Of a stretch of DNA of 64,000 bases, positions 21,685 through 55,119 are shown in pieces. The position numbers and the translations under genes were made by a program. How positions within the stretch are numbered: the first letter of the stretch is position 1; the number at the start of each line of letters is the position of its first letter. A model generated the notes under the pieces. It worked only from the letters and a program-made list of their open reading frames with translations, did no database searches and was not told the origin of the DNA. Source of the DNA: Massalongia carnosa (Eukaryota); NCBI GenBank assembly GCA_965645245.1, contig OZ287073.1, positions 2,170,001 through 2,234,000 on the forward strand, given 5' to 3'.

Positions 21685-23675
21685 CTACCCCTGATTCCCA
21701 GCTCCCTTTTTGAACTCCCGTTCTACCCATTCGGAAGTGTCCAGGTTGATCTGATTGATGTCGATGACTGCCTTTAGTGCCGAAGATGGTTTGGATTTAG
21801 TCATTGAATCTGCCGGGTTATTCTGACCATGAATCCACTTTACTTCTGTTACTTCTCGCCTTTCATATGACTGTCGGAGGCTCATTACATCGATCATCAA
21901 ACGTTTCTCATTGGTCGTTCCCAATCGGACCAATCAATCATATAATGATTTGGAATCCGTACACAGTATCAACGGAATCTCATGTTGAAATCCAGACGAC
22001 CCGAGCATCTTTGTCAGAGTAGCCTTGACCACCGCGCCGGTGTCAAAGCCATGTGCCATGCCGTACAGTTCCGCAGCTAATACGCTTCTGGTGACTCGTT
22101 TGCACTTGATTGACGACCAGTGAATGATGTTAGCTTTGCCTGTTGAGTCTGCAATGCAGATGACAAATCCCGGTTATTTGCAAATGAGGCGTCGGTGAAG
22201 ACGACTAGTTGAAGTGAATTCTGATCTAGTTGGACATACTTTAAACTCCTTGTCTTATTTTCCAATTGCCAATCCAGGCGCTTATTTAGTAGGGCAACAT
22301 CATCTGATGAAAATTCGATGGACTGCGCCGCATGGGACAGATCAAAAGCTGCTTCTGGTTGGCAGATTGAGGTGATGTATGCACCTCGTGCCCTTTGGGC
22401 CACATATTGGTCTTTTGGTGATAGCCTGGGCCGGACTTTTCCCTTGGAGCTAGTTGATGCGGCATTGTGATTTGCTATTAATGAAATGCCTTCAGCATTG
22501 GTCGTGACTTTAATTTCCCCGTTTGGGCCTAGGTCGATCTTGGTTCCGTTGAATTTGATTGGGCTGCCAGGGGTGAGGCAGTCCCATTGCTTGGTCAGGA
22601 TGTTTGCTTCCTTGATGGCTTTTTCCTCTTTGGTAGCGAAGATGTCATTGGCTAGAATTAATGTATCGTCGGTTTGCATTCCGACGATTCCGAATTCCGA
22701 TGAATTGGTCTTATACAGTAGGCACGGATCGTATGTCGACTCCGTCATCCCGAGTCTATTCAGATGATGCCCGTTGTAGGTAGGGAACCAATGATTACCT
22801 GCCTCCGGGACCCCGTATAGTGGTTTTATGACCTGAAGTATGCAGTCGGATGGGGCACCTAGTAGCGTAGCTAATTCATGAGGCGGGCGAATGTAGAAGT
22901 CTCGATTCAAATCTGACGTTGATTGAACGTACGCTTGAGTAACGTCTCGAAGGTAGAGCTTAGTGTTCGAAATGGTGGTAGCGAGGCAGATTAGTAGTCG
23001 CTGACTCACCCTTTGGATTGTCGGTGATTGAGTCAGTACCAGGCTTTTATTGATATCGTTGTAGGCCTGTACAACTAGTCTCGATTTTTCGAATGCTTTT
23101 TCAGTCCCGGCATTCTTTATCTCATCTACAAATCGGGAATTGAAGACTCGGGCACCGGCCGGGATGTCTTCGAATTGAACGAGTTTGAATACTCCTTTTT
23201 CCAGTAGTCCGGAAATTTCTTTTTGCCTTGATGCGGTAAATTGGTTTCCCTTTTTCATGGGAAATTGATTTTCGTCTTCTTTCATGACGAAACAAAGGTT
23301 AGCCTGGGCTGGATGCTTACTGGGCCTCCCGCGGCCACGTTTGACTGGTGCCGAGACTGGTTCCGAGATTAGATCGGACTCGGGATTCTGTGGTTCATGA
23401 TTTGTCGGGTCCGATTCTGCGTTATTTGGAATTTCATTCTCGGCAGCATTGAGAAATTCATTCTCGGGATTTAGATGGTAGTATGGTTTGACTGACGTGC
23501 TTCTAAATTTGGTCGGACCACTTGGCAATTCGACGATGATCGACTCATCCTGCATGGAGATGAGTCGGAACGGTCTCTTCCACGACCCCGTCTGTCCCGC
23601 ATTACCCTCTCGGAATACTAGGACAGGGGAGTTTAGTGACAGTCCATGTATGGAATCCGTAGATGGTCCATTTCT
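21685..23675 (-). pseudogene. GalEa-like Copia RT and RNase H portion
   Basis: KSRLVVQAY, RDVTQAYVQS, KPLYGVPEAG, GMQTDDTL, FTDASFA. Small deletion/frameshift near 22170. Confidence 0.88.
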
Positions 23676-23680
23676 AGTAT

Positions 23681-24020
23681 TGTTGTAATGTGCAAAGTCA
23701 CCCGGCTGATGCCTAGTAAAGTGTTCAGAGTCACATAGTACCGCATTGGGATTAGTGCGTTGGTAAGAACATTAGGCAACACATAACGACCTCGAGAAGC
23801 ACCGCAAAAACTTCTATGAACATTCCCATCGAGTCATAAATTGGATATGAGTCAATCACCAATCTTAGATTTCTAGGAAGCAGGAAGGTGAGTCATAGGG
23901 AGAACGGTTTTCGGCATGTTTTTCTATCTATATAAACACGGTCCTTAGATAGGTAGATAGAAAGATCAATCGTTTCAAAAGTGAGCTTTTTACTATGCCA
24001 GCAGAGCTTCAATTACAATA
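23681..24020 (+). repeat. 5' LTR (TG...TA ends)
   Basis: Direct repeat of 28547-28886, with a TATAAA box near 23930. Confidence 0.95.
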
Positions 24021-24142
24021 GGTTATGAGCCCGGAAAGCAATTTTTCTTCCGCATAAATTAATCTATCTATTCTGTTGTTTTTCAAAGTTACGAAGCCAT
24101 ACTTCTCTTCGTTCCATCCATCAGTTCTCCTATTATTGGACC

Positions 24143-27100
24143 ATGTCTGGAAAAGAGAGCGATTCCGCAGCTCCCGCGAAAGAGGGCACAACCCCTGATG
24201 GATCATATTCAAAAGCCATTCGAAAAGGAGACTATAAAGTAGAGCCGAAGCTTGGGTCCAACAACTATCTGACCTGGGCCGATGACATGCAACTTCTTCT
24301 CAAATCTAAAAGGATGTGGAGGATAGTAAACGGGGCCATTTCTTCTCCAGACCCTGTCACCCATCCAAAAGACTATGAGGAATGGTTTACTGATGACACT
24401 CAGGCACAGCTCTGGATCAGGGGCAATATAGAAAAGTCTCAATATGTCACTGTTAGGAACAAGGAGACCGCAAAGGATGTTTGGGCAGCATTGAGGAACG
24501 TCCATGGAGTCAAAGCCAAAAGCAGAATATGTGTGCTTCACAGAAAATTCTATACATATGAAATGTCAGTCGATCAACCCATCGATGAGGTCGCCAATGA
24601 ATTGCAGAACCTTGCGATGGAAATCGCAGATATAAAGACTTCAGAACAGCCATCAGATCTGTCTGTGGCCATGACCCTCATGAACGCCATTAAGGACCCA
24701 GCTTATGACACCGCGAAGTTCATCCTTGAAGACCTTGGTGATCCCACATTAGAAAAGACTCTGGAAAGCCTAAAACGGGTGGAGCAACGACTAAAAGATG
24801 GGCAAGAGACCGAGACGGCCAATAAGGCCATTAACAAGGGTAAGGCAATCCCCAAATGCTCACATTGCCCAAAGAGGCATAATAGCAATGATTGCTGGGA
24901 CTGGCAGGACAACACAGATGAAGGTAAAAAATGGGTCAAAGAACACCCTAATGAGGTGAAACCTAGACCAGAAAATAACCGAAAATCAAAGAGTGATAAC
25001 AAGCAGTCCAAAAACAAACCGAGAGGAAGGGGGGCAGCACGAGCAGCAAAGGATGAATCGAATAGTGATAGTGAGAATAGTGCGTGGATGGCGCAAGATG
25101 ATCAACACTCACCTGGATGGGTAATCGACTCAGGAGCCTCCAGGCATATGACATACAACAAATCGATCTTCACCCAAATCAAGCCATACCGGACCACCAT
25201 TAGAATTGCAAACGGCGAAAAACTCTTCTCCGTAGGAGTAGGTACGATTTGCACCAATATCGATGGGAAAAATATCCGGATGACAAACGTTCTATTCGTG
25301 CCTGAACTAGACGTCAACTTGCTATCAATTGCAGCCCTTAATCGGAAGGGTTTGAACGTTTCATTTAACCGGAGAGGTGTCGAGATTTTCAGGGATGGTA
25401 CTTTGGTCGCTACCGGAATTCTTAGGGGACGGGCGTACTTCCTCCACACATCTCATGTGGCCCTCGAAGCCCATGATGAAAATGATGATTTAGATGGCCC
25501 CGAACTACCGGCAAACCTTAAATCAACCACATATCTGACCTCGCTTTCCTCCGGCGAAATTCAACCCAAAACTCCTCCTCCTATTACCCCTGACTGCATC
25601 GATAGCGATCCAGTGGGAGCATCCAAAGAGACCACCAATGAGGCCACCAATGAGGCCCAATATTGGTTATGGCACACACGATTGGGGCACCCCAATGATA
25701 TACGACTTCAACAAGCAACAGGGAAGAAATTTTCAAAGGCAATTCTGGACCTACCGTGCCAGATTTGCAATTTAACTAAGATGACCCGTACAATCAGCAA
25801 AATTCCTTTCTCGAAGGCAAATAGACCACTCGATAGAATACATACTGACGTTTGGGGTCCATATAAGAAGGCCAGTTTAGGTGGGCATACCTATTTCGTT
25901 TCTTTGATAGACGACTATACCCGAAAATCTTGGCTCTTCTGTGTGAAAAGTAGGGCAGACATATACCGCATCATAAAAGACTGGAAGGCAATGGTCGAGT
26001 TGGAAAAGGGGCTCAAAATCATTCGCTTTCGTGCTGATAATGCCAAAGAGTATAAATATCTCGCAGAGCAACTTCAGCCATTAGGAATTCGTATGGAGCC
26101 AACCACCGCATACACGCCCCAGCAGAACGGTGTCGCCGAAAGATTCAATAGAACCATTGTTCAAATGGTAAGGTCTATGTTGGTATGGGCCAAATTGCCA
26201 CAATCTTTCTGGGGGGAAGCAGCAGTAGCAGCAAACCACCTCAGAAACTTCTTACCTACCACCAACACCACGTCGCCTAATGAGTCTTGGACCGGGCTAA
26301 GACCTAACATCAACACTCTTCGTACGTTCGGATGCGTCTCTTTTGTGCATGTCCCAAAGGAAAAACGCTCCAAACTAGATAATGTGTCATATCAGGCAAT
26401 ATTCACCGGATATCATTCAAGCAATCAATATAGGTTATACAATGTGGAAACAAAAAAGGTGGAAATTCAGACTTCAATAAAGTTTGATGAAAAAAGACCG
26501 GGGGGATCCTTACTTACAAAAGGCCTATCATCCCCGTCCGTCGTCCTAAATGACGATGACTCTTCCGATGACAATGAATCGTCACCACCAACCAACCACC
26601 CTACTACTGATCAAGTGGGAGTTCCTACTAATGGTGATCAGCACCAGGGCGATGGTATTCAGCATCAGGATGATGATGCAGGTGCTCAGGATAATCTGCA
26701 CCAAGATGATGCAGGTGCCCAGCACCAAAACAACCAAACTCAGGAGACAAATAGGACCCCTTCTTCATCACCTACCAGACGTTCCAACCGCAGGAAAGAT
26801 GTGTATAACCGATACGAATTCGATAACTCTTATGGAAACAAAAAGGACCGGGACCGGGCAAATATAGCAAAACAACCATCCAAAGTGTACGAGCCGCAGT
26901 CATATAATCAGGCCATGCAATGCACTGACCATCGCAAATGGAAAATTGCTATTCAAGACGAATTAAATGCTCTCGCCGCCAATAATACATGGAAATATGT
27001 TGAAAGACCAGCAGATAAGAACATCATCACCGCTAGATGGGTCTTCAAAGTGAAATACACCCCTACTAACCATGTTGACCGCTATAAAGCACGATTAGTA

Positions 27101-28428
27101 GCAAGGGGCTTCAAACAAATCCCCGGGACAGACTATGGGGACACGTTTTCACCCACCCTAAGGTATGAATCCTTACGAATGCTCCTATATTTCGCATGTA
27201 AATATAACTTCCATATTGAGCAAATGGACGCACCAAACGCATACTTGCAAAGCTCCCTAGATGACGAAATCTATATGGAGCCTCCCCAAGGCTTGGTGCT
27301 TCCCCCACATCTGACGAACCATGTGTTGCGCGTTCTGAAAGGACTCTATGGTCTCAAACAATCTGGCCGAGGATGGAATAAAAAGATAACCAATTATCTA
27401 ACATCCATTGGTTTCAAAGCGCTCTCAGGAGACAATTGTGTGTTCGTTAATCACACTACCCACGTTATCATTAGCCTTTATGTTGATGATTTTCTGATAT
27501 TTTCCAAAAGCATGACAGCCATAAAGGAGCTCAAAAGTCTACTAATAAAGGAATATAATATGAAAGACTTAGGGCCAGCAAAGTTCATCTTAGGGATTCG
27601 CATACGTCGCGAGAAAGACAAAATAATGATTGACCAATCATCTTACATTCGCAGCTTCCTGCAGAAATATAAGATGGATAAAGCAAATTCAGTCCTTACC
27701 CCTATGATCAACTATGATGCATGCAGTCCTGCCATCGTCAACGAACCTAGGACAAACCAATTAGAATATCAAGAACGGATAGGGAGTTTGATGTTTTTGA
27801 TGATCAACACGCGACCAGACATTGCCCAAGCAGTTGGAAAGCTTAGTCAATATACGCACGATCCAGCAATTAGGCACCGAAACGCGGTAGACCATCTCAT
27901 GAAATATCTGAATGGGACCACGAATTTGGCACTTACCTACGAACCCAATGACACCGGACCCACTAGTTATGCTGATGCAGCGTATGGTGATAACCATGAT
28001 AGAAAATCATCATATGGCCACGTTCTGATGCTAGGAAACGGGGCAGTTATATGGGCCAGTAAGAGGCAACGGTCAGTCGTCACATCCACCATGGAAGCAG
28101 AGTATTCTTCCATGTGCCAGGCTTCAAAAGATATAGTGTGGGCAACTAGATGGTTCGGAGAGTTGAACTCTCCAAAGATATGAACCTACCAATTATCCTA
28201 AATGGCGACAACCAGGGTACGCTCGATTTGATAAAAAACCCTGAGCACCATAGTCGGTCCAAACATATGGATATTCAGCTTCATTATCTTCGGGAGGTCG
28301 TTGAAGACAACTATGCCACTATACAGCACGTATCCACTCACGATATGGTGGCAGATATCTTCACTTAACCACTGGCGGCACCTATCTTTCGAAAGTTGCG
28401 CGAGAAATTAGGCCTAAGAGAGGCATAG
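24143..28428 (+). pseudogene. Copia gag-pol polyprotein, open for 1346 aa, then a frameshift and stop in RNase H
   Basis: WVIDSGASRHM, WHTRLGH, HTDVWGP, RYKARLVARGF, LYVDDFL, YADAAY. Frameshift near 28170 and TAA at 28366 in ADIFT*PL. Confidence 0.92.
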
Positions 28429-33591: not shown

Positions 33592-35585
33592 CTACCTAAA
33601 ATAGCTGGTAATGGTCATCTGCTTCCTAGTATTGATTTCCCCATTTAGCATAACCTGCTCCGAAGCATTCAAACGTTGAATCAGATCGATGTCGCCATCT
33701 TCCTGTTGCTCATGAAATGTACGTAGTATTCTCAAAGCTTGAATAGCTTCAGAGTATTTCACTGTAGGTTTGACGATCTCATCTTCAACCGATTCTTCAA
33801 TTTGACCCTCGGCGTATTCATCCACAATAGTATCAAGAATGTCATCATCATCATCCTCAATGATTTCTTCCGCGGGATTGAGACATCGTTCAATACTTAT
33901 GACGTCTTGAATGCGATCATTCTTCTTCAACTGCTGCAATGTAGTGCTCATCTCTTTTACTAGTTGATTGTAGTCTTCCGTCTCTTGATCAACTGCCTTC
34001 GACCAACCCTTTTCTTTCGTCCAGCCCATTTTCTTCGCTTGCAATTGCGTAGTAGGTCCGTAATTTGCTGAGAATACCAAAGACTTAATCCAGCAGTTGA
34101 CGATAGTAGCGGGTTTGACGTTATACTCCCAAGCAGTCATTGACCAACGGATAGCTTGCAAAATATGCATGTTCTTAAAAGGATCTTTGTCCGCATCATA
34201 CTGATCACATAAAAAGGCTAGCCTTATTCGCTTGTAGTGAGCCTTAAACGTCTTGATGATGCCTTGATCCAATGGTTGACAGATGCTTGTAGCATTGGCA
34301 GGAAGAAATATCACTTTAACGTTTGATTCAGGATTTGATTCTGAATACTGACGATAGCCAGCAACATGAGCTGAAAATCCATCGACTACCAAGACTACTT
34401 TGCGATTTGTTTGACGACTAAATCATTGCAAATACTCTTGAAATAATACTCCCGTCATCCATGCCTTTCTATTGCTTCGCCATAGCATATTCAGGTTGCT
34501 AACGTTGATCCCCTCACGCGTAAAACAGCGAGGTGTTTTTGCCGTACCAATGAACAAAAGTGGAAGTTTATGAGTGCCCGTTGCATTAACGCAAAAATTA
34601 ACGGTTATTCTAGCTTTCTCAAGCTTCAATCCAGCAGATGAAGCTGTAGCCAACGTTCCATTCGGATTCATCTTCCAATACAAGGCAGTCTCATCCATGT
34701 TGTATACATCGTCTTGATCGTACGGAGCCAACTTAATTCTCAAGTCCCTCAATTCTTCTTCCACTGTCTCCTTGTCAACTGATGCCGCTTCTCTATTTCG
34801 AATACGAAATGAGATGGAATGACGAGCTTTAAAAGCATCTAGCCAACCGTTAGAAAATTTGGGCATTTCTTCATGAGAGTATTGAGAAAGTCTTGTCCAG
34901 ATTTTCTTTGCCATCTCCTTCAATAACTCTCCCGTCACAGTCGCCTGCTTTGTCTGCATTCGTTGTTGCCATTCGAAAAGAGCCGCTTCAAGATCCGGCC
35001 AAAAAGAAGCTGTCGATATTAATAGACCGTGGTTCAAGCCAATTCCCGAAGTAAGATCCTGTTGAATTTAAAGCACGTGATTTCGGACTAATAACCGAGG
35101 CCTCGATCTTTCAGATGCTATTTCTTTCTATGCCATATATCTGATTTCTAATACTCAATGATTTCAAAACATTGTACCTCGCATGGGTTCCGGATCACTA
35201 ATGATCTATTAGTAAATAGAAGTGGCTGGAAGATATCTAGATTATGAAAGAATGTGGCGAAATGGTCTATATAGCTAGCTAGAATTTCCAGTTTAGATAG
35301 ACAAGGAGAACATCATTTTCCAGATCAATAAGAACGGTCCGACAGAAGCTTTCAATCTTTTGATATCAGGTTGAAATGTCTCCTTCTCATTAAACGATCG
35401 TATTTTCGAGAAAGAATATCCGATATTGTAGATTCCGAAGGTGTATGACCGAATTCAGCTTCAAACCAGACTTGATGAGCTTTGCCGAAAGGTCTTTTAA
35501 CGAAATTATTCTGAACATACTGACGAAGCGCGTGTTTTTCTGCATCTGTGATAGGTCGACGACGTTTTTTGGAGGAAGAATTCAT
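33592..35585 (-). pseudogene. Tigger/CENP-B-like transposase, disrupted
   Basis: WPDLEAALFEW, FSNGWLDAFK, YNMDETAL, KAWMT, VDGFSAH, CQPLDQGII. Stop at 34423 and a solo-LTR insertion. Confidence 0.9.
35011..35344. mobile_element. Solo LTR (334 bp)
   Basis: TGTCG...CGACA with GAAGC TSD. Confidence 0.9.
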
Positions 35586-36161
35586 GTTGAGTTGTTGGTT
35601 ATTAAAAGGATATGTTATCTATCGATAGGATGCGTAGCATGTAGTACTACGTATCAAGAATTTTTATCAGCTAATCCTAAAAGGGTAATTGCCGAGGTCT
35701 AGTTATAGCGAATCACTAAGAAACTTTCTAAAATTGCTTACGAATTCGCAATAGGCCGACATTCGTTATTTTACATACAAGAATCGCTCATCCATGAAAA
35801 AAATTCGTTATAAGCCGAATTCGTTGGAAAAAGGTTCGTTTTAACCAGGGTTCACTGTATCTATAGTGGGCGAACACGTGATAAGCACGTGCCCGCTTGT
35901 TCTAGCCCTTCCGATCTATTCCATTCTAGCCTTATCTGGCTAGTCCCCTTCCTTCTAGAGTCCCTCTAGAATCCCCTTCTGGAATCCCCCTTTTGGTACC
36001 TACAGTTGTCTTTATTATGTATATGTGTAAATATATGTGCATATTTGATAATATTTCACATGTCAAGTAACTAGAGAAACAGAGAAACATTATATCTTAA
36101 GCTCTCAACATGAGACAATGCGTTATCCTCTAAACCCAGGCGTATAATAAATAAATCACGT

Positions 36162-39100
36162 TTAATCAATATTCCAATCGATGCTCGGGGTTGTATACGA
36201 TTTCTGGGATACGAACTGATTAGATAGCGACTTCCAAACCGTCGGGGCAATACTATCGTCTTTCTTTCCCGTCACGTGGCTCTCCTCGTCCAACTTGGCT
36301 AGTAGTTTCGCATAATGCCGCGCACAGGATCTTGTGGTGGGGTGGTTGACTCCGATTTCCTTCTCGTAACCAGCACAGGCCCGCTCGTAGAGGGGGATTG
36401 CGTCGTTGTACTCCTTGCGGATGTGCAGAGAGTTAGCGATGTGGTAGACACTGGTCAATGTATCCACATGATATGGTCCTAAAGTCTTTTCGTAGCCCTC
36501 TAATGCTCTGCCGTGCATCACGTCCGCCTCCTTGTATTTTTGTTGACGGGTTAAAATGCCAGCGAGATTGCTGACGCTAGCTAAGGTGTCAGGGTGCTCT
36601 GGGCCGAGCGCTTCTCTTCCCTTCAGCGCTTGACGATGCAATTCCTCGGCCGCCTCGTATTTGCCTTGTTTCTGTAACAATTCTGCGAAATTACTCATGC
36701 TCGTCAAGGTGTATGGATGGTGTGGCCCATGACTTTCTCTGTATCGAGCCAACACCTCTTGGTTCATCATCTCGGCTTCCTTCCACTTACACTGCGTTTG
36801 GTACAATCCAGCCAGATTACTTGCACTCCTTAGTGTGGATGGATGATGGATTCCTAATGTTACCTTCTGACACTCCCATGATCTTTGCCACAGCTCCTTA
36901 GCTTCCTCATAATAGCCTTGGCGGTATAGTACGTCCGCTAGGTTGCTTGCACTCGTAAGTGTATCAGGATGCTGTAGTCCCAACACTCGTTCTCTCCCTT
37001 GCAATACCTCCAAGTTCATCCCCCGAGCTGCCTTGAATTTCCCCAGATGCTGTAGCACGGAAGCTAATTTGCTCTTGCTTGTCAATGTGTCTGGATGCTG
37101 AGCTCCTAGTGCCTGCTTTCTACCTTCTAGTGCTTGGCAAATAAGCAGTTCCGCTTTATCGTGCTTGCCCTGGAACTCTAAGACTGACGCAAGATCATCA
37201 ATACTCGTTAATGTATCGGGATGTAGTGGTCCCAGAACCTTTTGTCTCCCCTCTAATGCTTTTCGGTTCAGTTTCTCAGCTTCCTCATATTGCGCTCGAC
37301 TCCGTAGCACATTCGCCAGATTATTAATGCTCATTAAATTATCGGCGGATAGAGGTCCCAACCTCTCTCGTCCTTCCAGCGCGTACCGATTCATCTTTTC
37401 CGCCTCCTCATATCTGCCTTGGCTGTGTAGCACCAATGCTAGGTGACTGACACTCGTCAGCGTATCCGGATCTTCCATCCCTAACACAAGTTTTCTTCCG
37501 TCCAATGCTCGTCGGCTAATTAGCTCGGCCTCTCTATCCTTGCCTTGACACTCGAGTACAATCGCCAGGCTATTCAAACTCGATAGCGTGTCCCGATCCC
37601 TTGGCCCCAAAACTGCCTCTCTCAACGTTAGGTCACGACGAGCGAAGAATTCCGCAGCACTGTAATCGCCACTGCTTCGGAGACACCAAGCAACGTTGTA
37701 AAGTAAGGTCCATTGTTCCTTGTCATGTCCATTAGGCAGATATGAGGAAGCTAGTATATAGCGTGCATGAGGTAGATATAATGTCCATTTTTCCTTGTTC
37801 TCATGATTACCCTTCGGGAAGATCTCCGCTAGCCAATCAAGGGTTTTACCCGACCAGATTGTCAATTGATCACCGTGTTTCGGATCGAGTTTTAACCAAT
37901 TGCGCGTGGCCAAATGTACCAGTCGATGTACATCGTAAGAATCAATTCCGTCGTGTAAGGTGGTTCTTAAAGTGATAAAGGAAAATGCTTTCAAAGTCCC
38001 CAAAGCCTTGTTCATTCGGAGTGTTTGATGCACGGGAAGGATGGAAGCTGGAATGTCTCGTTGATTGACACATGACATGAATGCTAGATACTCGGCAGCT
38101 AGCGGATCCTCGTGTCTGATTTGATTAAAAGATATTAGCCAGGTAGCTGCTACCGGGTTTTTGGTACTCTCATATCTAGCCTGAGCTTTAAAATTTTCAC
38201 TAAGAATGTCAATCATGTTCTCCTCGCTCTCTTTGTAGAGGGCGATGTATCGAGATATTGCTATTCTGTTCTTGTTTATATAAGCTGCGGCTTGTGCAAT
38301 GGCAAGTGGTAGGCAGGTGAGCAGGTCGAGGAGTTCAGCTGGAGCCTCAATATCATCCATCAAATCTTTCATCACTAAGTTGACTTTCAAGAGAGTCTTG
38401 GCATCGTCTATACTCATCTTCTCAACCGCGATCACATTATCTCCGGCCTGGTCTCCAACCAGGTCGATAGCAACGCCCATTGTACGAGTCGTAAAGATTA
38501 TTGATCCCTGGCTATTTTCTGGAAGATACTGATCTAAATGGAACGAATAATTTTGATCATCTTTAGAGAAAATCTTGACATCGTCAGCATTGTCTACTAC
38601 CATGAGCCATTTTTTTTGACTCTCCCGACTTAGCTCATCTTTGACCAATTTCTTGACGTCTGCCTTCTGGTCATTGATACTAGGTATCTGTAGGGTTTGG
38701 CCGATTTTCAGATAGGCTTGTTCGAAGGCGGAAGAGTCATTCGCGGGCACCCAGAAGACTAGTAAATCTGAAGAACGCTCTTTGATCCGATAGGTAGTTT
38801 CCAAGGCAATCTGCGTCTTACCTACACCTCCGAGACCCACAATGGCAATACGCTGGAACTGGCCTTCCGTTTGGATTTTTCGGCTGAGCTGCTCAAGCTG
38901 CGAATTGCGACCGACAAAGTTTTTGTTCCTTGCGAAAGGCAGAGGTAAATGCAACTTTGGCATGTCTGCGTTTAGATTAGCCGTATCATCGTGACCTAAG
39001 CTTGCTCAGTCGTACCTTTCCGTGCCTCGATGTGACGATGATAAACCTACAGATTGTTAGATTAGGTGCTTCAAGGAAATCGCATAACCCCCGAAATATA

Positions 39101-40531
39101 GGTCAATGCTAGACTTAGACAATAGTTTGCTTGAAAGATGCCTTCAGTGAATTACAGAAGAAATAATGTCACTTTGATCTCCCACAAGCGGGAGTCTCTG
39201 CATAGTAAACGACGAACTTTCATTCTATTCTCAAATTTAGAACATGCACTGTCGTTAAGAGTCAGCCCACCGTACGCCTCTGCGCCATGTTTTAGGACCA
39301 GTCTTCCACTAACAAACTTCGCTTCTGTTTCAAAGTCAAAGTGCAATTGCGTACACGGTGTTTCTGTTCTTGCGAGACCAAATAACGATCTGTAGCGGCC
39401 CTAATGGCGCCTTCCTCCTTATGCTCGGATAAGCCTACGTTTTGAAGTCCCTGTTGAACATTGAAGCGAAAGTAGCGACCCTCGGAAAACAAGCCTCTGT
39501 ACTGCGATATGAACTGTTCAGCCGTTCGCTCGCTATCAGTGACAATTTCAACCAGGGTTTTTGACAGGAACTGCATAGCTCCATCATTGATAGGCGTCAC
39601 TCCTGGATCACCCGTGCCTATAGACACAATACACTTGATCAACGGCTTCAGTTCACCGCTCTCCGGTGACCAGATGTTCATGGCCTCATTCCACACCTCA
39701 ATAATCGGATTGTTCGCTCCTAGCGCGCCGTCAGCGTACATGCGAGTTCCAATTTTGACAGGATCGAAGAAGGAAGTTGCAGCGGATGTTGCCAAGGCTG
39801 CTTCCCAAATTGTGGCACCATGGTCGTCAAGTTCGTCGGCGACCTTGTAGCTCTTCAGCCGAGCAATTTCTTTGGTTTCATACGCTGTTGCGCATACGAA
39901 GCTGTACTTCTCTTAGTACGAGTATCATGCTAAACCACACAAATTGCTCACACTCTGCAGCCTCGGTCCTTCCCATCATTCAATAGTTCGGATGTGTTTA
40001 GATCTCGAGCCTCAATGGTTTGTTTGATAGCATTCTCAAGGACTTTAGAGTCAAAGCGTCCTTTGATTTTTCCCTTGAAGTTGAATGGGAGAGAAGACTT
40101 CTCGAACACGGTTTTCAACAATCGTGTGTATTCTGTGATGCATTCATCGACATCCATCTCGAGTCGTCCAAGCATGATTGCAATTAGACTGATAGCTGAT
40201 TAACAATAAGTCCCATGGTTGAGATGGAGATGACTACCCTCCAGTACTTGTGCCACCAATTAGGTCGAATATTTCGCACGGCTTGGCTTTTGGTAAACCT
40301 ATCTCCCGTCGCTCGTCGTTCAGCTTTGTCATGAGACCCTTCAAGATCCGCAACGACGAGAGACCCCGAACTCCTCCGCCATCTGTATCATTCCAGAAGT
40401 CAGAATACTAACAGTCAACACGATCCATCATCTATCCACGAACCTAACGAGAGCAAGCAAAGCCCAGTTTCATCAAGTGGATTCGAACCCACTCCGAGTG
40501 TTTGAGCTGTGGTCGGGATAGACTGCATCAT
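36162..40531 (-). CDS. Patatin-like phospholipase / NB-ARC / TPR NLR-type protein (PLP-1-like architecture), 7 predicted exons, 1307 aa
   Basis: Exons 40531-40444, 40382-40238, 40188-39952, 39901-39314, 39248-39218, 39046-39016 and 38965-36162 total 3924 nt in one frame. Patatin DGGGVRG, GTSTG, DGA. Walker A GLGGVGKT, Walker B LMVVDNAD, IIFTTR, LPLAIAQ, VHRLVH. About 11 TPRs with HPDTL-type motifs. The domains are secure; their fusion is a splice prediction. Confidence 0.85.
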
Positions 40532-41132: not shown

Positions 41133-41907
41133 TGTGCCCAAGAGCTTTTTCAAACGATAAAACGAGCACGAAGTGTAGATTGATCAAATTAATAAGTTAG
41201 AAGTATATATACAAAGGAAAGCGCGCAAAAGTCTTAATTAACGGTAATTTATACGACTAAAAAGAATAAATTCAATTTAATAATGTACCGAATTATTTGA
41301 CAGACAAAACCCTAGTCTTATGGGTCAATTGATCGCCCGGAGGTCATTTGGGACAGGGTTCTATGGGCTAACGTAACCCACCACTAGTTCGTCACCCACC
41401 ACTACTTTAAACACCAGAATTGCTTCATTTACCTTGCTGTCGCCAGCTGCAACGTCGTCGATATGAATAACTTCATGAATCTAACTAAAGGCGCCTCTTA
41501 TTCAGCCATTAATCTAACCCCGGACCGAAGGAATTGCTTCAATTGGCCGCCCAGAGCCCAAACCAACCACCCTTTTTGATCCGACTTCCCCATGCCTTCC
41601 GAGTCTCCCCAGGCGAAAAATCTCTTCGTAATAGCTTCATGATCGACAGTATTAATTATAGTGAGATGACGGGTGTGATTTTGAATGAAAGTAGTTCGAT
41701 TAGCTACAAACAAGATCAAAATCAAAGGGGTTAGAATTATCAGAGGCCCAGCAGAAATCATCAGAGGCCCAAATGAACATAAAAGCTCCTTTTTCATCGG
41801 ATATTTCTCCCAATCTTCGTTGTCTTTTGTATGTAAAATAGTCGTATAATTGTCGAATTTCTGGACAATCTTCCATCTTTTTCCTGCCTCTTCAAAGACC
41901 TTTCGAC

Positions 41908-44389
41908 ATGGCCAGTTCAATTGAAAAATTCCCATCCAGCGCGCGCCCTTCCATCTCTTCCAATCAGGAGAACGTACAGGTTCCATGCTCTGATCTTGTC
42001 GAGGTCTCCGAGACTCCCGATACCAGTCATCATCCATTGTTTTATTCTTCCCCCCCCCTCCCGCAACGTTCAGTCAATCCGGTGTTTCAGGCCGTCGCCA
42101 TCCGACGACAGTTCGAAGAGCTTGTCGAAGAACCTTTTGTAGATGGCATATCTGGAAAGGAGTGGAGAGAGCGAGTGCATCGACAATTGAACACGGAGCT
42201 CGAGGCCGCTTTGAAGGATAATGACCCCGACAAGGAGCTTGATCTACTGCGTCAACTGGCATATTGTCAGGTCTTAGAACGGGAGGGCTATTGGACAGGT
42301 CTCGGACGCGTACCGGACATGACCATGGACCATGTGCGCAAAGAAATTCGCGGAGAAGTGAAAGAACGGTTGGAGGATTTTTATGCATCATCGCCCTCTC
42401 CACCTCGCATGAACTCGGTATGTTCTTCCCTGTCTTCCTCGCCCATGTCATCGCCTTTGGCCAGGCGGGTGATTGCGCCGCTTTCCAGAGGAGATCGTGT
42501 AGGTTTAGCTGTCATAGCTGCAAAGAGCAAAAGAAAAACAGCGAACGAAGTCGCTCTTATTTACGGGGTCAACAGGGGAACTGTGGCCCGTCGAATGAAA
42601 GGAAGTCGAAATGCCGCGGAGTATGGTCTGACTCGTCGCCTTTTGGATGACAGCGAGGAGCAATCCATTCTTAATTACATTGATTCGAGCGCTGCTTTGG
42701 GTTTTCCCGCTCGCTTTGATATGGTTCGTGAAAAGGCCATGAAGTTGTTGAGACTTCGCGTTGATTCTCCTGCACCTTTGGGAATTAATTGGACGAAGCG
42801 CTTTCTTGATCGATATCCGGACTATCGTTCTCGATTTCCTCGTCACTTGGATCAGGAACGACACTGGAACACTGATCGCAAAGTGTTCGAGGATTGGTTC
42901 TCGCTTGTTCGAAGAACAATGGACAAGTATGGCATTGCGACAGGTGATGTTTATAACATGGATGAAAAGGGACATCTGATGGGAGTTGCGGGAAATATTC
43001 GGTAAGTGATCATATTTTCAGCTAAGTCACTTTCAGTTAGAAAATATCTGAGACTAGATGTTTTACGATTAACAAGCTTGAGCGGGGCTACATTTCAGAT
43101 CATCGATTGGTTGAAAATTTAATATTGATTTAAAGTTTTAAGCCTCATCGTTTAAGGTTTGATGTTTACGCTGAAATATTTAGTTCTATTATTTTGTAGA
43201 AAGGTCATCGTGCGACGATGCGACAAAAACGCCTTTTCCGTTCATTCTGGAGACAGGAAATGGAGCACCTGCATAGAGTTCGTTTCTACTCGAGGATGCG
43301 TGTTCAAGCCCATGATTATCTTCGAAGGTAAACGAATAGTAAAAGCCTGGAAGGGGGAATTTCCCGAGGCAACCTTTGCCGTTAGCAAGAATGGCTGGAC
43401 TGACAACAGTCATGGACTGACCTGGGTGAGAGAGTGTTTCAATCCTCAGACAGTTCATTTGGGACGCCGACGACTTCTTCTGATTGACGGGCATGCGTCT
43501 CATGTCTCTGTTGATTTTATCGAGTACTGCTGGTCAGTGGATATAGTTCCGCTTTGTCTTCCACCTCATACTACTCATTTTCTACAGCCTTTGGACGTAG
43601 GATGTTTCGGACCTCTGGACAAAGCATACAAAAAACAGCTGGTGGAGCGAAATAAATTCGGAGAGGTGTACGTGAATAAATTGGACTATCTGAAGTTTCT
43701 AAAGAGGGCAAGGGAAAAGGTCATGACTTCCGATGTAATCATGTCAGCTTGGGCTGCAACTGGTGAGTAAAAGTAACATTCTTTTCTTAATGTTTTGCTA
43801 ACAAGTTCAGGTATTTATCCTTTTGACCCGCAGCGAGTAATTGAGAAATTACCTCAATTTCTTCAATCGGTTCCTTCGGCCCCTTCGAGTTCAATCGTAT
43901 TTCCCTTGACCTCCACCTCCACCTCCACCTCCATCAACAGTTCATTTTCGAACAATTCTTTCGATAGAACTCCTTCTAAAAAGCGCGATTACTCTGCTAT
44001 GTTGAACTCATTAGAAATGTTCATACCTAAATCACATCAAGACCGGCTTCGGCGTCTCAAAATAGCAACTGCTATCGCCTTCGCAGATCGAACACTTCTT
44101 CAAGACTCTACTCAGTCATTATTCAAAGCGAACCTGGCCAAGGAGGAGAGAAAGAAAAAGAGAAAAGAGGCAGGGGAAAGGGCTACTTATGGTAGCGCTT
44201 TCGGACGTGTTCTCACCGAGGCTCAGGCCGAGGCATATCGCATAGAAGAGGAGGAGAAAGCAGAGGTCACTCGTCTGAGAAAGGAGGCCGTTGAGACTAG
44301 AAAGGTGAACGCTGCTGAAAAGAAGAAGGAGGCTGAAAGAAAGAAAGATGAGATGATCAAACGATTGGCCGCTCAGGCTGAGAAGAAAG
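41908..44389 (+). CDS. pogo transposase with two introns, open up to the assembly gap
   Basis: Exons 41908-43001, 43200-43762 and 43811-gap join in frame (GTAAGT..TAG, GTGAGT..CAG). YNMDEKG, LLIDGHASH, FLQPLDVG. Confidence 0.8.
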
Positions 44390-45617: not shown

Positions 45618-48266
45618 ATGGCTCTTGACCTACGGACAAGTCCCTTGACTCCCGCCGGTGCGCTCAAGCGGCCCCACCCATCGCCGTCAGGCAGTAATGA
45701 TAGCTCACCCTCTTCCTCCTCCCTTCCTGCCTTACCTGAAAAAAATGAAGGCGCGAAACGCCACCGCCGGCGCATATCAGATTACGACAAGCTGGTTGAG
45801 GTGCTTAAATTTCTGAGCTCTCTAAATTGGTCGGTAAAAGATTTTTTATCAACACTTTGTAAGAATCGAGCCCGTCATAGTATGCGAAAGGCGCAAGGCC
45901 AGCTCTTCGATTTTGTCTATGTCGATATTGTGCGGCAAGAAGACTTTTCAAGCCTCATTGGGCCTGGTAGAATATCCACTATCCTTCGCGAGAGAGGATG
46001 GGTTTGGGCCGCGGATGCGCTTCGTGAAGAAATCAAAGCTTTGGCAGATCACGCAGCCTTTGGCCCTTTCCAGCCGCCCTCTGCGACAGTCGAGTTTGGG
46101 ACCTTGGAGGCTATTAAACTTGCTGCATCTGCCGCCAAGCAGTTGGCGCCACGATGGCTTGAGCTAATTGATGGTGTTTGTCGCGAGGCTCGCCCGCAGG
46201 AACCTCTCGATGTGACGTTGGATTCTCCAGCGGCCGGCACACCATTATATTGGCAATGCTTTGTCACAAATTGCGACCTAATAAGGCGACTAATATTCAG
46301 TCCGTCTTAGGCCTTTATATTTATCAAGGTGGGGCGAGGCGGCGAGTTCTAGATACACTCTGTCATTTTGACCTGACGATGTCATATACTACCCTGCAGC
46401 GGCGCATGTTATCCTTGATTAAGGAGGCCGAACGAAAGGTTCAGATGCTAGGACAAGGCTCAAACATGAACTTGACATACGATAACTTTGACTTCGCAGA
46501 AGGTAAACGAGGAGAGCGCACGGGAGATAATAGAGACGTCAGATCAATCACTACCGCTCTAATTTTCCAGGGGCAAGGATTCGATGCCGGCGCTTTGAGG
46601 CAGGATATGTGGCGCCCCGCCACGCATCTTTTATCAGCTGAAAGAATCGCGCGAAAGCTGGAGACTGGTGATCTCGAGATGCGGGTGAGTTCAATACAGG
46701 ACGAGATGTATATACCGCGCTCAACCGCTAATGCACCGCGCACCTAGATTCGTCTTCATCATCTAGAGTCAGCGATTCGAGCGCTTTATGGCCCAGAGAT
46801 CGGCGACGTTCAACTTCCTGGTCGACTGCAATGCCCGTGCTGAATAAGATGAAAAAATACAAGACCAATTACATTCCTATCAAACCAGTCATGAAGGATG
46901 AGAGCACAACATCTAATAATATTCAAATATTGGAGGATATATTTGTGCGACAGTTCAAGTTCAGGAGGATGACTCGACGTTTGCGAGCGTCATTCGGCTT
47001 ATCTATGGTGACCTCAAGACATGGTCGAGAATGCAATCTGTCAAGGAATTACGTCGTGGGATATCGGAGCAATCTTTCGATCGGTTCGACTGGATTTTAC
47101 CGGGATTAGGGTTATGGCATCTTCGCTTTAACATGCTGCAGCTTATTCATAAAATACATTGGGGAGAGGCCCAGCTGGTTGATCCTTCGACTCTTCAATA
47201 TGCCGCCGATCGGTGGGGTCGCGCTCGTGTCGTGCAGCCGAACGATTTCCAGGCCTTAGAGGATCTGATCATTCAGAGCTATCAAGCTAGAATCGTTGGG
47301 ACGTGGATTAGGTTTTTACGAAAGGATGGATATGCTCCGCAGCGAATCGAAGCAACTATTTCGTGGCTCACAGCGCAGACTTGCGGGCAGGATGGTACTT
47401 GGACGAATATGTTGGGCAGGATATCTCGCAAACTTCAAGCGGAATTACCCTCAACGTCAATAGATATGCTTCCTCCAACGCTTGATCAACAATTTCAGAA
47501 TCATCAGAACTTCTGTGATCACGTTGAATCGTATCTAACACTTCGATACGCAATCAAATATGCGGATATTGGACTACTTCGTCACGCATTGCGCCACGCA
47601 ACAGTGATCTTTCAGGCAAGCGTAGCTGGCACCCCGAAATATGCGCAAGCTCTTCTATACACCCTTCATGCGATTGATTCTTCCGCAGCGACCATAAGGC
47701 TACAGGAAAATATTTTAATGAATAGTCTTGTCAATTTACGCGGTGACGAAGAGTCGAGTTTTGAGACTGATCGGCTTTTAGAGATACTAAACAATAACCT
47801 CAAGACGTTCCAACACGAGCGATCTTATTTTTCAAAGTATAGTGACACCTTGCTCGAGAACTGGGCACTCAACGGTCCATATCTTATGAAGCTCAAAGAA
47901 ATCGTTGAGTTTTACTTTGGAAGAGTCAACTCTTCAAGGCATCCAGCAAAATCGGCCGCGGAGGATGTGTGGGGCATGGCTACGGCACTAGCGCATAAAT
48001 CACTCTGTAAAAGAAGCTATGATCGATTTTCAACTAATCCAACCGCTAATCTTTATGTTGAGGGATTGAAGAAACTTGGAGAAAATGTATTAAAATACAA
48101 TCAGCAGTATCTTTCCGAAGAAATTTCAAAAGAAATTTCAACAGACGACCTTGAGGGTAAGTATGAAGCCGAGCCCGATTTTGTCAATGAAACAAAGCAG
48201 GTCCCCGACAGCCCTGTCATTTCAATGGCCCGTCTCGAGATATCTGGCGGTATGTTTTTTGATTAA
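45618..48266 (+). pseudogene. DUF6589-like / Academ-type transposase with about three frameshifts and one intron
   Basis: TYDNFDF, IYGDLKT, PGLGLWHLRFN, LRYAIKYADIG, FETDRLLEILN. Intron 46685-46747. Shifts near 46230, 46820 and 46960. Confidence 0.75.
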
Positions 48267-49377: not shown

Positions 49378-51221
49378 ATGAACTCAGCAGACGAACTGCC
49401 CAAAGAGGAGCGCATTCAGCTTGCTATTGCTGCTTATAGAGAGTCATTTAATGACTGGGAAGCCGGTCCCAAAGCTTTCGAAGACAAGCCATCCGTTCGA
49501 AAAATCGCCCGTAAGCATGGTATCATTCATTCCACCCTTACTAGACGACTTGCAGAAACGAAAACTCATAAAGAAGCTGCTCTATTGCAGCAGCGATTAC
49601 TTCCGGAGGAGGAATCCGCTCTCGTGGACTGGACAATACAAATGGAGGCATGGGGCTGGCCTCCTCGTGTAACACAACTTCGCTTTATGGCGTTAGAAAT
49701 GCTGATAAAGCGAGACGATCGCAACGATTTGGGTATCAATGGGTGAGCAAATTTTTATCCCGTCATAAAGAGTTGGATACTGTGTTTTGTCAGGCATTGG
49801 ACAAGGAAAGAGCTTTAATGCATAATGCGGAAATGCTCAATCAATGGTTTCAGCTGTACGCAAAGAATTTTAATCAATACAAATTCAATGAGGAGGACTG
49901 CTACAATATGGATGAAAAAGGATTTGCTATGGGACTAGTGGGCAAGCTCAGAGTAATTTGCTCTAAGCATGATCGACCAGCATTATTGACTCAATGCGGT
50001 AATAGAGAATGGGTTTCTCTGATCGAATGTGTATCTGCTGATGGAGCGGTTCTTAAACCATGGGTTATTTTCAAAGGTAAACAACAGCAAAAGGCCTGGC
50101 GTTCATTTATCAAAGAAGGTGGTCACATTGCTCTGAGTGAGAATGGATGGACAAACAATGAAATCGGTCTGGATTGGTTAAAGCAGTGTTTTGAACCGGA
50201 AACACGAAGCCGTTTAAAAGGTCGCTATCGTCTTCTTATTCTCGATGGACATGCTTCTCATCTTACTTCAGAAGCGATTCAGTTTTGTAAGGAAAAAGAC
50301 ATCATTCTTTTATGTCTTCCTTCTCATTCAACGGACATGCTTCAGCCTTTAGACGTTGGTGTTTTTCATCCATTGTCTACAGCCTATCGGGTGGAACTGG
50401 AGAAGTATACTAGACTAGGAGTTGGTTATTCAATTGATAAAGCAGACTTTCTGCTTCTTTATCAAAAGGCTCGAAACAGAGCTTTATCCACTCAAAATAT
50501 TCAGCATGCCTGGTCCAAAAGTGGGTTGTTTCCATTCAATCCTGCTATAGTTCTTCAAAAACTTCCTAGTCCACCTCATCCTTCTACGCCTCCGAAAATG
50601 ACAGTCACGAGTTCAAATGATGTCTCTGTTTCAGTGGCATTTACTCCAGCAAATGCTGATCAAGTCAATACTTTGATGGAGCAATTGACTGACAATGACT
50701 CAAATCAATTGATTCTCGACAAGCTTGGAAAGGCCTGCAAATCCGCGTTGGCAAGCAGTCATCTTCTCAGGATTACAAACGAAGAACTTCTTGTAGCTGC
50801 TCGTCGTAAACACGAAAGAGCAAATCGAGCGAAGGGACATTATGGTACTGCTAGAATCATGAATTCGGAGGTTCTCGAGGAACGAGAGCAAAAGCTAGCT
50901 AGCAAAGAAAAGGAAAAGATTGATAAACAAATGACCAAAGAGTTCAATCTTTTGGTGAAATCTTTCAACAAACTCAGTCCCGATTTATTCATGGAGTCAA
51001 AACAACGCAGTCCCATCAAGAAAGCTCTTCAAAGGCCTCCGATGCTTCCTCCGCCTTCGGGTTCAATCATACTTCTCTCGCCCAGTCCTATCAAGAAGCG
51101 ATCAAGAGGAAATTCATTGCCAAAAAAGACTTTCATGATTGGGCCGGAGGCGAATAGAATGAAAGAAATGCGCATCAGTCGAAGTGGTAGGACAATAAAG
51201 CCGTCGCAAAGGCTTGATTAA
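49378..51221 (+). pseudogene. pogo transposase with a single frameshift near 49740
   Basis: HTH, WGWPP, YNMDEKGF, LILDGHASH, MLQPLDVG. The expected GINWVSKF is broken by a 1-bp deletion. Confidence 0.9.
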
Positions 51222-53976: not shown

Positions 53977-55119
53977 ATGTCTTCAGCAGAAGAGAACCTC
54001 TCCGAGCTGGATAAGCGTATTCGATTCATTCAGGAACGTCTTCAGGCAGACCCTCAGCAATTCCTGAGTCAAATGGACAACCTAGAAGCCGAAGTAAACC
54101 AACTTCGCAACAATGCCAATACCCCTTCTATTTCCGAGCCCATACCTATCTCAAATCCACCCCCCCCTACCTTGGATCCGCAAATCATGGCCATGATGCA
54201 GCTGCTCCTGGCGTCAAAAAACTCCCTCATCCGCTCCGAAAAGCTCCCGGACATCACGGAGTATGAGGGCGAAGAAGTCAAGCTGGATGCGTGGGAGCAG
54301 TCCCTGATTCAAAGAATGCATGTCAACAATGATCGATACCCGTTCGATCAAGCCAAAATTGCCTATGCCGAAAGCCGACTCACCATAGGCAAAAAGGCTC
54401 ATAACCTAATGAATGCGTACAGGGTCGATGGCCTTTGCGTACTCACCTCATTTGCTGAATGGCGATCAGCCCTCCGCCGCGCATGCGGAAATCCCTACGA
54501 GCAGGAGGATGCTCGCAAATACCTTCGCGATATCCTCAAACAGGGAAGTAGTAGCTTCGAGGAGTACTACAACCTTTTTGCGCAGAAAAAAGACCGGTCC
54601 AAGATGGAAGATGCCAGCCTGATCGATGCCATGAAGGCAAATGTGAATTATTCAACCCAGACCGCAGCCCTAATGTATAGGGTCCCCGGAACCCAAAGGC
54701 AACCAACCACCTTCGACGAGCACGTCACCATGTGGTTGGAGACAGATCGTGGCCTTCGGCAGATCCGCCACATTGCCCCAAAGGCGAACACCACCACTAT
54801 CACCCCGACACCGAAAAAGCCAAACCCGTTATCAGCACTTCCCCCGACAGTCGCTCCCGCTGCCAAAGCACCTGTCGCTTCTCCCGCCTCCCCTGCGCTG
54901 CTCATTGGCGACCCCATGGACCTAAGCTCTGCCATGGCAGCGGTGAAAGGCCAATCGCTCAAAACCGAGGGGGTCCGCAAAATCTGCGAAGACTGGAAGT
55001 TGTGTTTCTACTGCAAATTGCAGCATCCAGGGAAGTCAGCAACTGACTGTCCCAACAAGCGAACCAACCTTCGGAGCATGGAGCTCGAAGCCCCTGATAT
55101 TGATCAGGGAAAAGCCTAG
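53977..55119 (+). CDS. gag: Gag
   Basis: 380-aa ORF with GDPMDL and zinc knuckle CFYCKLQHPGKSATDC. Confidence 0.95.
   Translation: MSSAEENLSELDKRIRFIQERLQADPQQFLSQMDNLEAEVNQLRNNANTPSISEPIPISNPPPPTLDPQIMAMMQLLLASKNSLIRSEKLPDITEYEGEEVKLDAWEQSLIQRMHVNNDRYPFDQAKIAYAESRLTIGKKAHNLMNAYRVDGLCVLTSFAEWRSALRRACGNPYEQEDARKYLRDILKQGSSSFEEYYNLFAQKKDRSKMEDASLIDAMKANVNYSTQTAALMYRVPGTQRQPTTFDEHVTMWLETDRGLRQIRHIAPKANTTTITPTPKKPNPLSALPPTVAPAAKAPVASPASPALLIGDPMDLSSAMAAVKGQSLKTEGVRKICEDWKLCFYCKLQHPGKSATDCPNKRTNLRSMELEAPDIDQGKA

Follow-up and report, generated by a model that had tools for sequence, protein, structure and literature searches.

A patatin-NB-ARC-TPR gene of Massalongia carnosa with two candidate micro-exons and a conserved eight-codon ending in its first linker intron

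The question raised by the locus described here is whether a patatin reading frame and an NB-ARC reading frame that lie one behind the other are two genes or one, and, if they are one, whether the stop codon that closes the patatin frame may also serve to release a second and shorter protein. The locus lies on the minus strand, at 40531-36162, of a stretch of 64,000 nucleotides (nt) from Massalongia carnosa (GenBank assembly GCA_965645245.1, contig OZ287073.1, positions 2,170,001 to 2,234,000 of the forward strand), and this whole stretch is called the window in the following. The comparative evidence indicates that the model of one fused gene, in which two exons of about 30 nt (micro-exons) connect the two frames, is very probably right, and the gene would then encode a receptor of the NOD-like type (NLR; NOD, nucleotide-binding oligomerisation domain) that resembles PLP-1. 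Given this gene model, the evidence leans slightly toward a lipase-only product, made by retention of linker intron 1, being under selection, and the reading as a whole, one fused PLP-1-like NLR gene from which selection maintains both the full NLR and a lipase-only form, stands evenly poised in our judgement. That the gene is spliced in this organism, that the retained form is translated and that any of this is regulated, we infer from the DNA sequence and its relatives.

Gene anatomy and the linker splice model

On direct reading of the bases, the picture of ORFs (open reading frames) given in a preliminary description of this DNA, with a patatin stop at 39292 and a distinct NB-ARC-TPR frame, proved exact: the patatin ORF closes at TAA 39294-39292 and the separate NB-ARC-TPR ORF has 947 codons (39005-36162). 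The same description had fused the two frames through three linker introns and two 31-nt exons, and a script reproduced the six splice sites, both exons and the in-frame fusion at all coordinates. Three more introns, absent from that description, were found in the patatin part (40443-40383, 40237-40189 and 39951-39902). The script-built model has seven exons and 1307 codons plus the stop, with the start ATG at 40531 and the stop codon at 36164-36162, and its product of 1307 amino acids (aa) is laid out as patatin, a 31-residue linker, NB-ARC and about ten tetratricopeptide repeats (TPRs). The features of the gene, with the basis of each in brackets, are the following; L001 is an orthologous locus described below, and AF2 stands for AlphaFold2.

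36162..40531, minus strand: whole gene, patatin-linker-NB-ARC-TPR (script model, Pfam, L001 exons)
40444..40531, minus strand: exon 1, 88 nt, from the ATG to the first base of the D codon of DGGGVRG (N-terminus matches homologues)
40383..40443, minus strand: intron, 61 nt, GTTCGT..CTGAC..CAG (70.5% identity with L001)
40238..40382, minus strand: exon 2, 145 nt, with DGGGVRG and GTSTG (Pfam Patatin; one 6-nt indel relative to L001)
40189..40237, minus strand: intron, 49 nt, GTAGTC..CAG, after GGTSTGG (position occupied in 4/4 genomic loci having the N-terminus)
39952..40188, minus strand: exon 3, 237 nt (model)
39902..39951, minus strand: intron, 50 nt, GTGAGC..CAG, after ..RGCRV (genomic exon ORFs of relatives stop at the same position)
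39314..39901, minus strand: exon 4, 588 nt, C-terminal half of patatin with the Asp of DGA (Pfam Patatin)
39249..39313, minus strand: linker intron 1, 65 nt, GTTAGT..GCTGAC..CAG, starting within the read-through tail (splice signals kept in L001)
39292..39318, minus strand: retained-intron tail SLLVEDWS plus TAA in the frame of exon 4 (ORF end; family conservation)
39312..39317, minus strand: upstream GT (GTTTGT), the rival donor of the preliminary description (position of the family phase-1 donor)
39218..39248, minus strand: micro-exon 1, 31 nt, ACSKFENRMK after a split F codon (31 nt in L001; fits the family linker motif)
39047..39217, minus strand: linker intron 2, 171 nt, GTTCGT..CTAAC..TAG (indels of 9, 1 and 1 nt relative to L001)
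39016..39046, minus strand: micro-exon 2, 31 nt, VYHRHIEARK plus the first base of the next codon (28 nt in L001; flanking splice sites kept)
38966..39015, minus strand: linker intron 3, 50 nt, GTACGA..GCTAAT..CAG (one 1-nt indel relative to L001)
36162..38965, minus strand: exon 7, 2804 nt including the stop, NB-ARC and about ten TPR_10/TPR_12 repeats (Pfam; AF2 model)
36165..36182, minus strand: C-terminal motif IDWNID (restricted to the orthologue group)

The linker is made up of the final 5 nt of exon 4, the two micro-exons and the opening codons of exon 7, the phases are compatible so that the open frame is continuous from the patatin exon into NB-ARC, and branch sites of the CTRAY type lie 10-15 nt before the 3' end in all three linker introns. 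Linker intron 2 (171 nt, and 181 nt in L001) is about three times as long as the other five introns (49-65 nt). The translated model carries intact patatin motifs, DGGGVRG for the oxyanion, GTSTG with the Ser and DGA, present as DGALGANNP, with the Asp; the Ser-Asp dyad and the glycine-rich oxyanion motif that characterise patatin-like phospholipases are thus both present, and the product is a putative enzyme of this kind. The NB-ARC motifs GLGGVGKT (Walker A) and VVDNADD (Walker B) are intact as well. Pfam recognised Patatin in exon 2 (E 1.9e-06) and exon 4 (E 3e-08), NB-ARC (PF00931, E 2.6e-12), and in the TPR part TPR_10 (E 3e-100, 10 stretches) and TPR_12 (E 1.8e-88).

The preliminary description had called for an alignment of orthologues across the micro-exons, and an orthologous locus was obtained from a metagenome scan (L001), which aligns across the whole gene at 84% identity, flanks excluded. 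All six linker splice sites are preserved in it; micro-exon 1 is again 31 nt long, with three substitutions, and micro-exon 2 is 28 nt long through an in-frame deletion of 3 nt. The indels between the window and L001 measure 6 and 3 nt in exons, which are multiples of three only, and 4, 9, 1, 1 and 1 nt in introns, and when the orthologous sites are used to splice L001, an uninterrupted frame of 1308 codons results. The ratio of nonsynonymous to synonymous substitution rates (dN/dS) between the two loci is 0.14 for patatin, 0.24 for NB-ARC and 0.18 for the TPR part. In place of the ATG at 38963, which would be the start of a stand-alone NB-ARC gene, L001 has ATA, and it lacks any other in-frame ATG ahead of the P-loop. 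A separate NB-ARC protein starting at the in-frame Met of micro-exon 1 was also considered and was rejected because this Met is not conserved in homologues.

To place the linker among all the possible ones, GT..AG models with zero to three introns of at least 40 nt each were enumerated over 39345-38940 under an open frame from RYFRFNV to the P-loop, and were scored with a profile of the linkers of the 14 annotated homologues that have a full-length linker. The enumeration yielded 1355 in-frame, stop-free models, among which the micro-exon model ranked first with 140.1 bits; its linker is 31 aa long in comparison to 31-33 aa in the annotated homologues. The aligned positions of L001 have GT/AG and leave the frame open for 95 of the 1355 models, and the micro-exon model was the top one among these by summed score (278.5 versus 272.9).

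More distant relatives have linkers of a similar build. Eighty related loci were retrieved; a patatin exon lies upstream of the P-loop in nine, and no continuous frame joins the two in any of these. For one of the nine, L015, 1903 models were enumerated from behind an in-frame stop in its patatin exon, and the best one has three introns (61, 62 and 47 nt) and micro-exons of 26 and 37 nt. This stop (GL*DIGL, L015 9588-9620) stands in a gene that is otherwise apparently intact, and may mark a pseudogene or a sequencing error. Reading of L013 by eye gave micro-exons of 35 and 37 nt with donors GTGTGT, GTAAGG and GTATGT, and the linker so derived matches annotated Dothideomycete proteins. The motif of micro-exon 1, N-[RK]-T-[ED]-x-x-F-[AS], stands ahead of several NOD types among the 95 long homologues. 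One or both micro-exon segments are missing from the annotated linkers of homologues P0091, P0094, P0268, P0288 and P0295, which points to public models of this family in which the micro-exons are often omitted or the gene is divided into two, one part with patatin only and the other with TPRs only. In addition, two unannotated ORFs are continuous fusions, P0282 (1049 aa on a 3.5-kb contig) and P0301 (1215 aa on a 3.9-kb contig), and spliced RNA is the best explanation for both. This patatin module, with its KQKQ end and the micro-exon-1 motif, was also observed fused to WD40-type, ankyrin and GTPase-type partners (P0304, P0352, P0355, P0306 and P0336), and the module, linker exons included, seems to have been shuffled as a unit. 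The order of patatin exon, intron, micro-exon, intron, micro-exon, intron and NOD exon is old and part of the patatin module in many fungal NLRs.

A conserved ending within linker intron 1

If linker intron 1 is kept, exon 4 runs on for eight more codons (SLLVEDWS) to the TAA, and an mRNA of this form would be translated into a patatin-only protein of about 357 aa with an acidic-aromatic tail. The full protein would act, by analogy with PLP-1, through TPRs that sense a partner, an NB-ARC that then oligomerises and a lipase that kills the cell.

To see how this tail fares in the family, the frame of exon 4 was searched against ORF-level proteins of 113-361 aa, and the best 120 of 1181 matches were examined. 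Among these, 111 could be anchored on the ..[DN]C motif, and 93 of the 111 continue for exactly 16 residues after the anchor, that is 8 coding residues and 8 of the tail (8 after the KQKQ position), and then stop. The consensus of the tail is S-V-Y-I-E-[DN]-F-[AS], the counts among the 93 being S 85, V 75, Y 79, I 66, E 79, D or N 74, F 79, and A, S or T 88; the same tail ends at least five of the nine matches that could not be anchored. The mean pairwise identity (n=92) was 0.62 for the tail in comparison to 0.60 for the preceding 8 residues and 0.66 for the preceding 32. The tail is as conserved as the coding residues that adjoin it, as would be expected of selection on an isoform-specific coding sequence. 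The clade of the window carries SLLVED[WYF]S in all four of its members (W, W, Y and F).

The replacements seen in the tail are of a kind common in proteins, namely I/L/V/M, D/N, F/Y/W and A/S/T. Between L013 and L015 the tail has three codon differences, all of them synonymous changes at the third base, and the tails of the window and L015 share few bases, yet the residue classes and the position of the stop are kept. As an internal control, four ORFs with intron 1 spliced out and intron 2 read through were compared; their tails were 0, 4, 7 and 15 residues long and unrelated to one another. The tail was present in none of the 95 long fused homologues. In a divergent sample of 150 cluster representatives the anchors failed in 87; 31 of the 63 anchored ones continue as fusions, 4 have a tail of canonical length and 5 more end in DFS, NFA or DVS variants. 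Tail and downstream NB-ARC occur together in the window, L001, L013 and L015, and the tail is absent in L052, a more distant member of the family. Translational read-through, or a donor just before the stop of the tail, was also considered for this place and was rejected, since there is no GT there in the window, L013 or L015.

Some unannotated ORFs of relatives appear to be copies of such a retained form. Seven of them run uninterrupted from a Met to the tail across both upstream intron positions (after GGTSTGG and after ..RGCxV), and both positions hold introns in the genomic loci inspected. Two of the seven fall in 90%-identity clusters together with full-length NLRs, of 1177 aa from Lobaria immixta and of 902 aa from Aspergillus parasiticus, and the same two clusters hold short genomic exon ORFs (77 aa and 150 aa) that end exactly at the upstream introns. 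The Met-to-tail ORFs are most simply read as lying on contigs derived from RNA that had lost the upstream introns and retained linker intron 1. Several of these contigs are 1.2-1.6 kb long, a length which would fit a short mRNA and which assembly breaks could give as well.

The preliminary description had proposed a possible splice switch with two routes to the short protein, and these fared differently. The product of intron-1 retention is plausible, given that its tail is conserved in the family and that RNA-like contigs of relatives keep the intron, and the conservation of the tail adds new support for a switch of this type. The rival donor GTTTGT at 39317 does lead, when joined to the acceptor at 39249, to a stop inside micro-exon 1; as a route of switching it found no support. 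This GTTTGT sits where the ancestral phase-1 donor of the family lies, and in this clade it has no in-frame join to micro-exon 1. In the search for control elements, Rfam over 38800-39500 gave no match at E up to 1, and the fold of linker intron 2 was no better than that of its shuffles (z 0.04); no riboswitch-like control element was found by these two means, and neither gave an explanation for the extra length of that intron.

Weighing the alternative readings

Several observations weigh against the reading of one micro-exon gene with two selected products, and they concern the gene model, the tail and the RNA-like contigs. The linker donors are non-consensus (GTTAGT, GTTCGT and GTACGA), and the margin in the profile scoring is thin, with 140.1 bits for the micro-exon model versus 139.7 for the runner-up. 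With L001 alone the orthologous model reaches 138.4 bits in comparison to 144.0 for models with an acceptor specific to L001, so that the orthologous model is singled out by the two-species filter only and not by the profile scoring of L001. Micro-exon 2 is poorly conserved (75% identity), the dN/dS of the linker is 0.69 over 31 codons, and relative to the window the intron positions of L013 and L015 are shifted by a few residues. Four sequencing runs gave genomic contigs colinear with the window and without splice joints, and no junction was observed in this organism. On the side of the tail, the homologue lists are the best 120 per length class and not a random sample, the codon-level test covers three independent lineages only and is compatible with RNA-level constraint on the start of the intron, and in the AF2 model of a patatin-only homologue (P0189) the residues of the tail (351-357) have a predicted local distance difference test (pLDDT) score below 50 and lie unpacked behind the last helix, where the model gives them no structural role. 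Finally, the RNA origin of the contigs of relatives was deduced from ORF continuity and not from run records, and the contigs that retain intron 1 could be unprocessed pre-mRNA.

These points bear most directly on the possibility that the gene is a single fused NLR with micro-exons of which only the full-length protein matters, the retention of intron 1 being splicing noise around micro-exons that are hard to define. All of the evidence for the gene model applies to it equally, and it accounts for the conserved start of the intron by an RNA-level need, such as recognition of a weak donor or intron definition, or by a fail-safe that ends translation quickly. The tail indeed overlaps the donor region and is disordered in the AF2 model just mentioned; intron 2 is retained too in RNA-like ORFs of relatives (P0263, P0277, P0333 and P0356), beside which fully spliced forms occur, so inefficient splicing of the linker seems general and the linker introns may simply be slow to splice; and the function shown in PLP-1, in the portions of the report that we drew on, is that of the full-length protein (PMC12881547). 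What noise does not readily explain is that in 93 of the 111 anchored homologues conservation reaches 24 nt past the end of the exon, as far as a stop codon of constant position, that the substitutions are protein-like and the third-base changes between L013 and L015 synonymous, that the tails of the window and L015 keep their residue classes at low nucleotide identity, and that the read-through tails of intron 2 have no such conservation. We regard noise as a doubtful explanation that nevertheless has to be reckoned with.

Two further readings dispute the gene model itself. In the first, the region holds two genes, as ORF-based calling splits it, a patatin-only gene ending at TAA 39292 and an NB-ARC-TPR gene starting at ATG 38963. 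The database does list the products of the window as two entries, P0001 (933 aa, starting MPKLH) and P0122 (a fragment of patatin), several fungi have annotated models of about 350 aa with patatin only (e.g., P0228, P0154 and P0145), and the tail and its stop are conserved. This division is nevertheless very unlikely: L001 has ATA in place of the proposed start and no in-frame ATG before the P-loop, the micro-exons hold their frame through a 3-nt indel while the introns accept indels of 1 nt, the micro-exon peptides are conserved throughout the family in fused proteins with several NOD types, continuous fused ORFs lie on short unannotated contigs, and the second gene would encode a lone NB-ARC-TPR protein with no effector domain. 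In the second, the gene is fused by a single intron of 352 nt from the donor GTTTGT at 39317 to the acceptor at 38966, which leaves a 9-residue linker; this join, overlooked in the preliminary description, is in frame in the window and in L001 with GT and AG conserved, and short linkers of a like kind are annotated in P0091, P0268, P0288 and P0295. It scored 123.3 bits against the homologue profile, rank 1076 of 1355, it leaves unexplained both the 3n-only indel in micro-exon 2 and the likeness of the micro-exon peptides to the family linker, and its length is far above the 49-171 nt of the other five introns, and we consider it highly improbable.

If the micro-exon gene with a selected lipase-only product is accepted, the function of the tail may be asked about in turn. 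The AF2 model of P0189 has a mean pLDDT of 78.7 and a predicted template modelling (TM) score of 0.83, and for its unpacked tail a free linear motif fits better than an element of the fold. The AF2 model of the NB-ARC-TPR protein of the window (mean pLDDT 85.4) is all-helical over residues 414-898, and its C-terminus (residues 908-933) has a pLDDT below 50, so that the W-acidic end of the NLR is unplaced. This end, [IV]DW[SN]xD-COOH, was found by regular-expression search in all five orthologues (P0001-P0005) and in none of the 142 other long homologues. The clade with the W-acidic NLR end also carries W, Y or F in the retained-intron tail. Acidic-aromatic C-terminal peptides resemble known ligands of TPRs, such as the EEVD ends of chaperones and the W-acidic and Y-acidic motifs of kinesin light chain cargo. 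A bolder proposal would be that the patatin module of a large family of fungal NLRs contains an ancient coding intron, whose retention is a selected release of the lipase-only protein and whose acidic-aromatic tail is a TPR docking motif, and we rate it as a speculation that is unlikely to hold. The tail, written as hydrophobic-hydrophobic-E-D-aromatic-small-COOH, would in this proposal bind the TPR sensor of its own or of a sister NLR, or else a TPR of the chaperone type. Binding would hold the free lipase, inhibit it or deliver it in trans, as a two-component mode beside the fused receptor, and the W-acidic end of the NLR could compete for the same TPR groove.

Genomic setting and comparison with known systems

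The window is nearly all derived from transposons, and the NLR is its sole recognisable non-transposon gene, an isolated host gene. The similarity to L001 ends at the borders of the gene, and remnants of the Tc5/pogo type lie on both flanks. The elements recognised in the window are the following, and the last line adds a sequence variant.

24029-28183, 22077-23771 and 62584-63999: copia
55104-59564: gypsy
16398-18490: LINE-like reverse transcriptase/endonuclease
2559-6278 and 49572-51221: Tc5/pogo
33592..35618, minus strand: Tc5/pogo-type remnants with DDE_1, HTH_Tnp_Tc5 and HTH_ABP1_N
41842..43770, plus strand: Tc5/pogo-type remnants on the opposite flank
9549-10067: hAT
61284-62108: piggyBac-type
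46920-48266: DUF6589
39249, minus strand: variant, A for the acceptor G of linker intron 1 (one contig of run X4, organism B, depth 3.4)

The four sequencing runs gave only near-identical genomic contigs at the locus. The change at 39249, which turns AG into AA, is the only difference reported in 4.8 kb and, standing in a single contig, may be an error; if it is real, the fused isoform would be blocked in that strain.

With respect to known systems, the preliminary description had matched the gene to PLP-1 of Neurospora, PaPlp1 of Podospora and vic2 of Cryphonectria. The match holds for the three-part patatin-NB-ARC-TPR architecture, which Pfam and the comparative model both give, and it does not extend to a linkage with sec-9. 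No member of the SNARE/SEC-9 family was found among the 43 scanned ORFs of the 99 with at least 100 aa in the 64-kb window, a search that covered no ORFs below 100 aa; a SNARE gene of small exons, or one outside the window, may exist. Because this linkage was looked for and not found in the window, the gene is filed as a PLP-1-like patatin NLR and not as a member of the PLP-1/SEC-9 allorecognition system. In PLP-1 of Neurospora crassa, the parts of the literature consulted report that cell death requires the lipase and the P-loop and that the TPRs meet SEC-9 (PMC12881547, bioRxiv 10.1101/2022.04.03.486892, PMC13449251). The gene shares with PLP-1 the patatin, NB-ARC and TPR parts as well as the catalytic and P-loop motifs, and by this analogy its mode of action is likely the same; the absence of a sec-9 neighbour among the ORFs scanned sets it apart. 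PLP-1 was not among the best 120 matches of any homologue search, and the gene therefore belongs to a different branch of the family. The sections of the PLP-1 literature at hand (PMC12881547, bioRxiv 10.1101/2022.04.03.486892) make no mention of a conserved retained-intron tail. HET-Z1/PaPLP1 of Podospora anserina and the patatin-domain VIC2 of Cryphonectria parasitica have the same architecture as the gene and, as far as the passages used describe them, were defined genetically as incompatibility loci (PMC13449251, PMC12881547), while the gene here is known from sequence alone.

Other systems share single aspects with this locus. The best matches of the P0189 model among solved structures were AbCapV (9jeh_A, E 3.4e-16, TM 0.69/0.72) and patatin (1oxw_C, TM 0.76/0.75), and the fold is thus like that of CapV/CapE of the CBASS (cyclic-oligonucleotide-based antiphage signalling system) and of plant patatin; unlike the gene here, these proteins, at 17-22% sequence identity, are free-standing, are activated by nucleotides or otherwise, and have no fusion to a NOD. 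Very small exons and alternative splicing are described for the NACHT-ANK genes of Tuber in the sections of the sources used (PMC4986451, PMC13449251), where tens of 3-nt exons diversify a repeat region, whereas the present gene has two exons of about 30 nt, which code for a fixed linker that connects effector and NOD.

No connection of fungal cell death with the innate immunity of plants or animals has been studied better than that through fungal NLRs of the PLP-1 kind, and the gene models of these NLRs frequently contain errors. Where exons of about 30 nt are missed, effector and sensor are split or the linker is truncated in the gene models, here and in many database entries, and censuses of NLRs are distorted. 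The conserved eight-codon ending is the more important result: an effector-only lipase may be a further product of many patatin-NLR loci. This idea is testable with the existing RNA sequencing data of model fungi that carry members of the family (the Aspergillus oryzae group, Neurospora and Podospora). A full-text literature search for splicing isoforms of patatin NLRs or of PLP-1 brought up no published case from a fungal patatin NLR. In plants, NLR isoforms truncated by alternative splicing or intron retention are known and matter, as in tobacco N and Arabidopsis RPS4. The present locus would be like these in that a full receptor and a shorter product, here a predicted one, come from a single NLR locus and the shorter one keeps the N-terminal signalling or effector domain, and it is unlike them in kingdom, in effector and in the kind of evidence, which is the conservation of the tail here and measured isoforms there.

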